Positions 1,141 to 1,180 of a stretch of 2,040 bases of DNA are shown here, piece by piece. The translations under genes were made by a program, and so were the position numbers. Under the pieces are notes generated by a model, which saw nothing but the letters and a program-made list of their open reading frames with translations, had not been told where the DNA came from and made no database searches. The DNA comes from Escherichia coli. Lineage in GTDB: Bacteria; Pseudomonadota; Gammaproteobacteria; Enterobacterales; Enterobacteriaceae. Every line of letters begins with the position of its first letter. Position 1 is the first letter of the stretch. The stretch lies in NCBI RefSeq assembly GCF_003334335.1, contig NZ_QOWQ01000094.1. The stretch is one strand, 5' to 3'.

Positions 1141-1180
1141 AAGAAAACCCCGGTATCTGCTGATACCGGGGTTTCTGTTT
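1141..1180. terminator. Bidirectional intrinsic-terminator-like hairpin in the I-J spacer
   Basis: AAACCCCGGTATC (1145-1157) and GATACCGGGGTTT (1162-1174) form a perfect 13-bp stem around a 4-nt loop TGCT (1158-1161). The + strand continues TTTCTGTTT and the minus strand continues TTTTCTTTC, so a GC-rich core stem is followed by a U-tract on either strand. Confidence 0.5.

Follow-up and report, generated by a model that had tools for sequence, protein, structure and literature searches.

We found that the spacer between the tail genes I and J of a lambdoid Escherichia coli prophage contains a perfect 13-bp stem-loop with a U-tract on each strand, and we propose that this hairpin is a two-way terminator at the J-side edge of an insertion slot, one that would be obeyed by unmodified RNA polymerase and ignored by Q-modified polymerase. 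We put the probability of this reading at roughly 60%. The hairpin would mark the J-proximal edge of a moron slot at the I/J junction that houses the antisense small RNA (sRNA) PasB.

The window (the whole 2,040-nt stretch of DNA analysed here) is part of the tail operon, with K, I, the spacer and J all on the + strand. It opens with the 3′ portion of a lambda K-like C40 peptidase gene, followed by the tail assembly gene I (255-935, for which the RefSeq annotation uses an internal start at ~354) and by the 5′ part of the tail tip/host specificity gene J, which begins at an ATG at 1278 and runs off the window at 2040. The intervening spacer (936-1277, 342 nt), in which the hairpin lies, is AT-richer than its surroundings (GC 0.40-0.45 over 900-1200 versus 0.52-0.63 in I and J) and long for this junction (I-J distance of 342 nt here, 60 nt in lambda, 9 nt in ES18 and 0 nt in a Pasteurella prophage).

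A 401-nt query across the spacer matched 1,612 of 5,426 complete E. coli genomes, as well as inducible Stx-converting phages and others. A scan of genome contigs that used an alignment of J yielded only 8 loci, which contributed little further diversity. The Stx2 phage ASU11, which is induced by mitomycin and encodes Q, carries exactly the same spacer, and the hairpin is therefore compatible with late gene expression. The spacer is also present in prophage Sp12 of the O157:H7 strain Sakai, where the hairpin lies at ~2217495-2217524 of NC_002695.2.

Structure of the I-J hairpin

The hairpin (1145-1174) was examined by repeat search, folding and shuffling. Its arms, AAACCCCGGTATC (1145-1157) and GATACCGGGGTTT (1162-1174), are 13 nt long and 100% complementary around a TGCT loop (1158-1161), and the stem core comprises 10 bp, 8 of which are G-C pairs. 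When the entire window was shuffled with dinucleotide composition preserved and loops of 3-8 nt allowed, the longest perfect stem was 10 bp, and 13 bp was never reached (0/500 shuffles). Folding of the 50 nt from 1136 to 1185 gave -24.4 kcal/mol on the + strand and -24.0 kcal/mol on the minus strand (z = -6.35 on both; 0/200 shuffles of this stretch equally stable), and the hairpin alone folded at -19 to -23 kcal/mol. In equilibrium folds, as distinct from co-transcriptional kinetics, the hairpin was kept in both the MFE and the centroid structure of every longer context on both strands (87, 121 and 250 nt on the + strand; 75 and 121 nt on the minus strand), so that competition from alternative structures, raised in the preliminary description as a way in which the hairpin could fail, did not materialize.

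The stem is bordered by complementary flanks, 5′ AAAGAAAA and 3′ TTTCTGTTT, which give each strand a U-tract. On the + strand this tract is TTTCTGTTT (1172-1180, also read UUUCUGUUU; 7/9 U). On the minus strand, the + letters GAAAGAAAA at 1139-1147, which form the A-tract for the + strand, are read as UUUUCUUUC (7/9 U), and the tail that follows the G/C core is TTTTCTTTC (the complement of 1139-1147). The minus-strand tract is the better of the two by T-score (4.15, against 3.43 for the + strand). A simple terminator scan of the window did not list this hairpin, and the terminator call therefore rests on the repeat, fold and tail analyses, which bear out the perfect 13-bp stem with U-tracts on both strands between I and J that had been described beforehand.

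The element combines a stable GC-rich stem-loop, a U-rich tract at the end of the stem and persistence in folds, as expected of an intrinsic terminator, and adds the complementary A-tract and U-tract flanks expected of one that works on two strands. Bidirectional intrinsic terminators of E. coli place a stem between an A-tract and a U-tract and are typically found between convergent genes. Our hairpin resembles them in its GC-rich stem and complementary A-/U-rich flanks, which in one variant, from O157:H7 SS52, extend to a perfect 18-bp palindrome. It differs from them in that its + strand unit, a late operon antiterminated by Q, runs on into J and in that no convergent pair was identified; the window has no annotated minus-strand gene between the hairpin and J. 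To judge from its sequence, the hairpin looks like a strong, structurally bidirectional intrinsic terminator of the ordinary kind, with termination itself a prediction.

Two further structures flank the hairpin. An upstream stem-loop (1099-1136, + strand; ACCGGU with an AUCGGU core) folded without competing with it, and downstream there is a weak second hairpin (1181-1206; AGCATG...CATGCT) followed by TTTTCGGG on the + strand. Searching Rfam with the full window (E ≤ 1) returned a single chance-level hit, to a Streptococcus sRNA model (E = 0.11; 26.8 bits against a gathering threshold of 48).

The neighbouring sRNA PasB

We identified the minus-strand sRNA of the spacer as PasB because the published Northern probe for EPEC E2348/69 (AATCCCGCAGTGATCGCGGAGCT; Table S6, PMC8550237) matches positions 945-967. 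PasB is an experimentally validated, Hfq-dependent sRNA (Pearl Mizrahi et al. 2021, PMC8550237) that is expressed in lysogenic E2348/69 according to Northern and RNA-seq data (PMC8550237), lies between the same two genes in that strain, and has been described as embedded within a phage structural-gene operon (Zhu, Shabalina & Storz 2026 preprint). The discovery table for PasB gives no EHEC homologue, and we found no mention of the hairpin in the available parts of that paper or of the 2026 preprint on PasB.

Carrying the E2348/69 coordinates to the window through alignment placed the published boundaries of PasB at 1023→941, and the predicted promoter would start the gene at ~1038 (941-1038, minus strand). 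The reported length of 83 nt (1023→941) thus compares with ~97 nt as counted from the -10 element at 1050-1045; the difference points to processing at the 5′ end or to an RNA-seq boundary that is only approximate. A terminator scan located the intrinsic terminator of PasB as a stem-loop at 949-965 on the minus strand followed by ATTTTTTTAT, and the sigma-70 promoter-like site (1045-1072, minus strand; TTCACA, 16 nt, TATAAT) agrees with the consensus at 11 of 12 positions. Upstream of the -35 element, a block at 1064-1098 hardly varies, even among PasB variants that have diverged. It contains a tandem TGTGAAAA/TGTGAAGA motif plus an AT-rich stretch which, reaching to ~1098, may be a UP element or a regulator site.

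Morons, a concept credited to Juhala et al. 2000 (PMC3594210), are described as carrying their own promoter and terminator (PMC3594210). PasB has both and is expressed in a repressed prophage, and the spacer around it is extra DNA at a conserved junction with a deviating base composition. The hairpin lies outside PasB, ~70 nt upstream of the PasB promoter, and we infer that it is part of the moron unit.

We also considered the spacer as coding sequence. Its open reading frames, one of 66 aa on the + strand (a hypothetical gene in ASU11) and two of 44 and 128 aa on the minus strand, had no PHROG match, and this possibility was set aside. The 128-aa frame (916-1302) extends across PasB, both terminators and the entire spacer. 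In Sakai, its counterpart XECs209 was listed as a candidate novel small gene on the basis of RNA-seq and Ribo-seq, with low ribosome coverage (0.10-0.34), and antisense RNA over the Sakai Sp12 spacer at XECs209 amounts to an RPKM of ~60-106 that is not resolved from PasB. The signal attributed to this frame is almost certainly non-coding and derived from PasB.

Exchange of modules ahead of J

We then scanned IMG/VR with a 24-mer of the conserved PasB promoter block, which returned 127 places. The common PasB block stops at ~1098 and is followed either by the module of the window, which we term type A (1099-1277, + strand; ~70 of 127 places), or by an unrelated sequence, type B (~55 places), so that the module containing the hairpin is swapped as a block in other PasB prophages. 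At ≥95% identity, type A was present in 1,446 of 5,426 complete E. coli genomes, always adjoining J. A repetitive palindrome or mobile element was rejected as an origin, the 180-nt module being confined to the neighbourhood of J (median, 1 place per genome); a second place in phage records was the palindrome matching itself on the opposite strand.

Type A is nearly invariant (≥95% identity in 1,446 genomes), and selection on its stem therefore cannot be tested by covariation. The G/C core of the hairpin was intact in ~70 of 72 type A loci. The + tail varied among type A relatives, with TTTCTCTTT in the majority, TTTTCTTT in O157:H7 SS52 and TTTCTGTTT in the window; in SS52 (L008) the 1-nt tail change to TTTTCTTT completes the 18-bp palindrome AAAGAAAACCCCGGTATC/GATACCGGGGTTTTCTTT. 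Only 2 of ~72 type A loci lacked the hairpin (L039 type). In these, exactly 47 nt are gone between the imperfect direct repeats GCATGaaAGAAA (1135-1146) and GCATGgcAGAAA (1182-1193), which leaves a weaker hairpin (GCATGAAA-GAAATGTG-TTTCATGC) followed by TTTTCGGG. The loss probably reflects a microhomology deletion, to judge from these repeats, and amounts to a natural knockout of the hairpin. The converse event, an insertion with target-site duplication, was rejected as less likely because the two repeats differ at 2 of 12 positions within a module that is otherwise >99% conserved.

The type B hairpin (CAGGCAyCC-loop-GGrTGCCTG) is followed by TTGTTTTT and has a U-tract on the + strand only, its minus-strand tail containing 2-3/9 U. 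Pairing in the stem reached 98% across 10 variants; at one position a C-G pair was replaced by U-A in a compensatory change, for which a U-G intermediate was seen. Type B is carried by EPEC E2348/69, the strain in which PasB was discovered, and by Sp11 and Sp15 of EHEC Sakai. It occupies the same slot as type A, between the PasB promoter block and J, and likewise presents a strong stem and a + strand U-tract. In contrast, it is non-homologous, has no minus-strand U-tract, lies in a spacer ~100 nt shorter and has a stem that varies where that of type A does not. PhiR5_1 has a J whose N-terminus is 99% identical to that of the window yet carries a type B spacer, which shows that spacer modules reassort independently of J.

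The Sakai spacers of Sp15 (L130; NC_002695.2 ~2902835-2902930) and Sp11 (L131) contain PasB-like copies together with the type B hairpin. By position and coordinate calibration, with sequence compared for Sp15 and Sp11, the Hfq-dependent RNAs EcOnc22, EcOnc23 and EcOnc24 (~85 nt; Tree et al. 2014) seem to be members of the PasB family that have diverged; they occupy the I-J spacers of Sp15, Sp14 and Sp11, respectively. Old Sakai coordinates were offset by ~+139 relative to NC_002695.2 at 1.94-2.23 Mb, as calibrated on AgvB, the XECs209 stop and the HnrS terminator. EcOnc22 had been a candidate for an RNA across the type B hairpin, which was rejected once its peak, after the +139 calibration, fell on the PasB-like body. 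HnrS itself (EcOnc10-12) lies elsewhere in Sp12, outside this spacer.

In a third spacer, type C (L137 at 330-1200, L138-L140, L219 and L220), a gene for Cu/Zn superoxide dismutase (sodC) on the minus strand separates J from a PasB-like remnant. The remnant retains a PasB-like body directly downstream of the sodC terminator, without the conserved promoter block. The minus-strand terminator of sodC occupies the position equivalent to the 1145-1174 hairpin, and no + strand terminator was found ahead of J in the type C spacers.

Hairpins also precede J in phages outside these types. In lambda, which does not carry PasB, the 60-nt I-J spacer contains a + strand hairpin (AAACCGCC-TGCG-GGCGGTTT, followed by TGTCATTTAT; within 15445-15504 of NC_001416, L135 745-805) that is terminator-like and is conserved, with a changed loop, in lambda-like Escherichia prophages (L221-L223). 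It is unannotated, and we found no description or annotation of an I-J terminator in the literature or the lambda record. As in the window, the lambda hairpin and U-tract stand directly before J in a late operon that is read by Q-modified polymerase; the spacer differs in its length and in having no PasB, and the hairpin in its weaker stem and poorer minus-strand tail (4/9 U).

In the HK97 record, the I/J region is annotated with a 'moron' (gp22) and a 'reverse moron' (gp23), the latter with a putative minus-strand terminator, and with a putative + strand terminator 12 nt before J (NC_002167 15107-15129; AGCCACC-TTTG-GGTGGCT followed by TTTTTAT). As in the window, a + strand stem-loop with a U-tract lies where the tail assembly genes give way to J, next to an antisense-transcribed insertion carrying its own terminator on the minus strand. 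The HK97 sequence is unrelated, with a 7-bp stem of about -12 kcal/mol, a U-tract on the + strand only and a distance of 12 nt to the J ATG compared with ~100 nt here, and its insertions are protein genes and not an sRNA. A + strand hairpin with a U-tract is thus found right before J in four unrelated sequences (type A, type B, lambda and HK97), whereas in ES18 and the Pasteurella prophage I and J lie 9 nt apart or adjacent, without a hairpin. The junction of I and J is recognised as a place where independently transcribed cargo, often antisense, is inserted.

Proposed function and competing explanations

We propose that the hairpin is a Rho-independent, or intrinsic, terminator whose symmetry would let it act on either strand. 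In the lysogen, + strand transcription by polymerase without Q that had passed I and PasB would be stopped before J, lom and stf, and in type A prophages minus-strand transcription out of J would be stopped before the PasB promoter. In the lytic phase, polymerase that starts at pR′ and is modified by Q would pass the hairpin, and J would still be made. Read-through by Q-modified polymerase is established lambda biology. Action on the + strand is supported by the comparison across phages; action on the minus strand may be read from the symmetry of type A, with its SS52 palindrome, and from the analogy to type C. The earlier idea that the hairpin attenuates J unless transcription is antiterminated by a Q-like factor fits this comparison, given the + strand hairpins of type B, lambda and HK97 and the exact spacer in ASU11.

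Other parts of the preliminary description fared differently. Geometry rules out that the hairpin protects the PasB promoter against late read-through, because polymerase moving along the + strand from I has already crossed PasB (941-1038) and the PasB promoter (1045-1072) when it arrives at 1145-1174. Insulation of PasB from antisense transcription out of J may still occur, as a tentative suggestion, but it is not something that PasB requires, because type B spacers have the same promoter with 2-3/9 U on the minus strand. Apart from one weak promoter-like site on the minus strand, no source of lysogen transcription needing a stop was found in the window. A stop before J is dispensable, since 2 of ~72 type A loci and type C lack one, and J expression as such does not depend on the hairpin, since I and J are close or adjacent without it in ES18 and the Pasteurella prophage.

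These exceptions bear on an account in which the hairpin is an inert scar, a terminator left by a lost or rearranged moron or by hot-spot recombination, with no current selective role. The junction is indeed mosaic, with types A, B and C, lambda and HK97 all different; natural deletion variants exist (L039, L011 and H80); type C demonstrates that a minus-strand moron terminator is able to occupy this position; and phages with adjoining I and J manage without a hairpin. The recurrent + strand hairpins could accordingly be by-products or scars of moron traffic and not a selected function. We nonetheless hold this account to be unlikely, considering that the G/C core persists not only in ~70/72 type A loci but across 1,446 genomes, that the type B stem was kept through a compensatory change and that four unrelated sequences retain a + strand hairpin and U-tract before J. 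A scar would still terminate unmodified polymerase, and this account differs from the two-way terminator on selection and not on mechanism. A different possibility is that the hairpin terminates a second minus-strand sRNA of ~70 nt, starting at ~1210 and ending at ~1138, in tandem upstream of PasB. It had been stated that the hairpin is not the end of a second sRNA, there being no + strand promoter to feed it; this holds for the + strand, where a consensus scan found 0 sites and 1040-1100 contains no TAnnnT hexamer, but on the minus strand a weak promoter-like site (1246 to 1217; TTGCCA, 18 nt, TATCCT), the sole candidate that could feed the hairpin from the J side, leaves such an RNA formally possible. 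The site is at a suitable distance, the minus-strand U-tract UUUUCUUUC is the better one, a 75-nt RNA of this strand would fold as a 5′ hairpin joined to the terminator by a single-stranded AAACAGAAA (z = -6.5), the type C hairpin in the equivalent place is the minus-strand sodC terminator, and there is the antisense signal over the Sp12 spacer (XECs209), though unresolved from PasB. Against these points, the promoter matches the consensus at 9 of 12 positions with a TATCCT -10 element, a quality reached about once per window by chance; the Sp12 spacer has no Hfq-CRAC peak among the 64 EcOnc candidates, a set in which the PasB-like EcOnc22-24 were detected in Sp15, Sp14 and Sp11; no Rfam family matched at threshold; and type B, lambda and HK97 indicate a + strand role at this position. 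On balance we regard a second sRNA as improbable.

Two further explanations were weighed. In the first, the hairpin would act on the late mRNA and not on transcription, by blocking 3′-exonucleases, by marking where the message is processed or by modulating translation of J, and would set the output of J relative to the tail genes upstream; the high stability of the stem, its location between cistrons of a long polycistronic message and the recurrence of pre-J hairpins in several lambdoid lineages would suit such a role. The J leader (1175-1290), however, is not unusually structured (z = +0.7), and the hairpin sits ~100 nt from the J ribosome-binding site. Moreover, the constant feature is the U-tract after the stem, which is a terminator signature and superfluous for a stability element. 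K and I are low-copy assembly factors in lambda, and there is no obvious gain from stabilising their messages. We therefore give a late-mRNA role little credence. We give even less to the second, a regulated attenuator switched by the 1099-1136 stem-loop, a ligand or a protein: the CCGG segments at 1103-1110 and 1127-1133 and both arms could re-pair in principle, but the two hairpins stood side by side in all context folds with no antiterminator in the MFE or centroid structures, no Rfam family reached threshold, and type B is without any upstream stem.

If the two-way terminator works as we read it, the prophage can carry an antisense RNA within its tail operon without cross-talk, with stops obeyed by unmodified polymerase alone that fence the insertion in the lysogen and are ignored in lytic growth. 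A more ambitious and, in our estimation, doubtful extension would make the junction a Q-gated checkpoint before J, at which a + strand terminator has been repeatedly replaced by unrelated ones, keeping J-lom-stf strictly Q-dependent and defining the slot for PasB or sodC, and at which the type A version also ends a ~70-nt minus-strand RNA in tandem with PasB. The architectural context is already understood and no new kind of mechanism is involved; the recurrent pre-J terminator is a modestly interesting generalisation, and the hairpins concerned, that of lambda included, offer a handle on how the late operon is partitioned and on the I/J insertion hot-spot.

Finally, two decayed prophages (L007, NZ_CP032791, and L011) have a deletion end inside or beside the hairpin. 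In one of the pair a truncated I is joined at window position ~1166, and in the other the spacer is joined at ~1131 to a sequence possibly internal to J.
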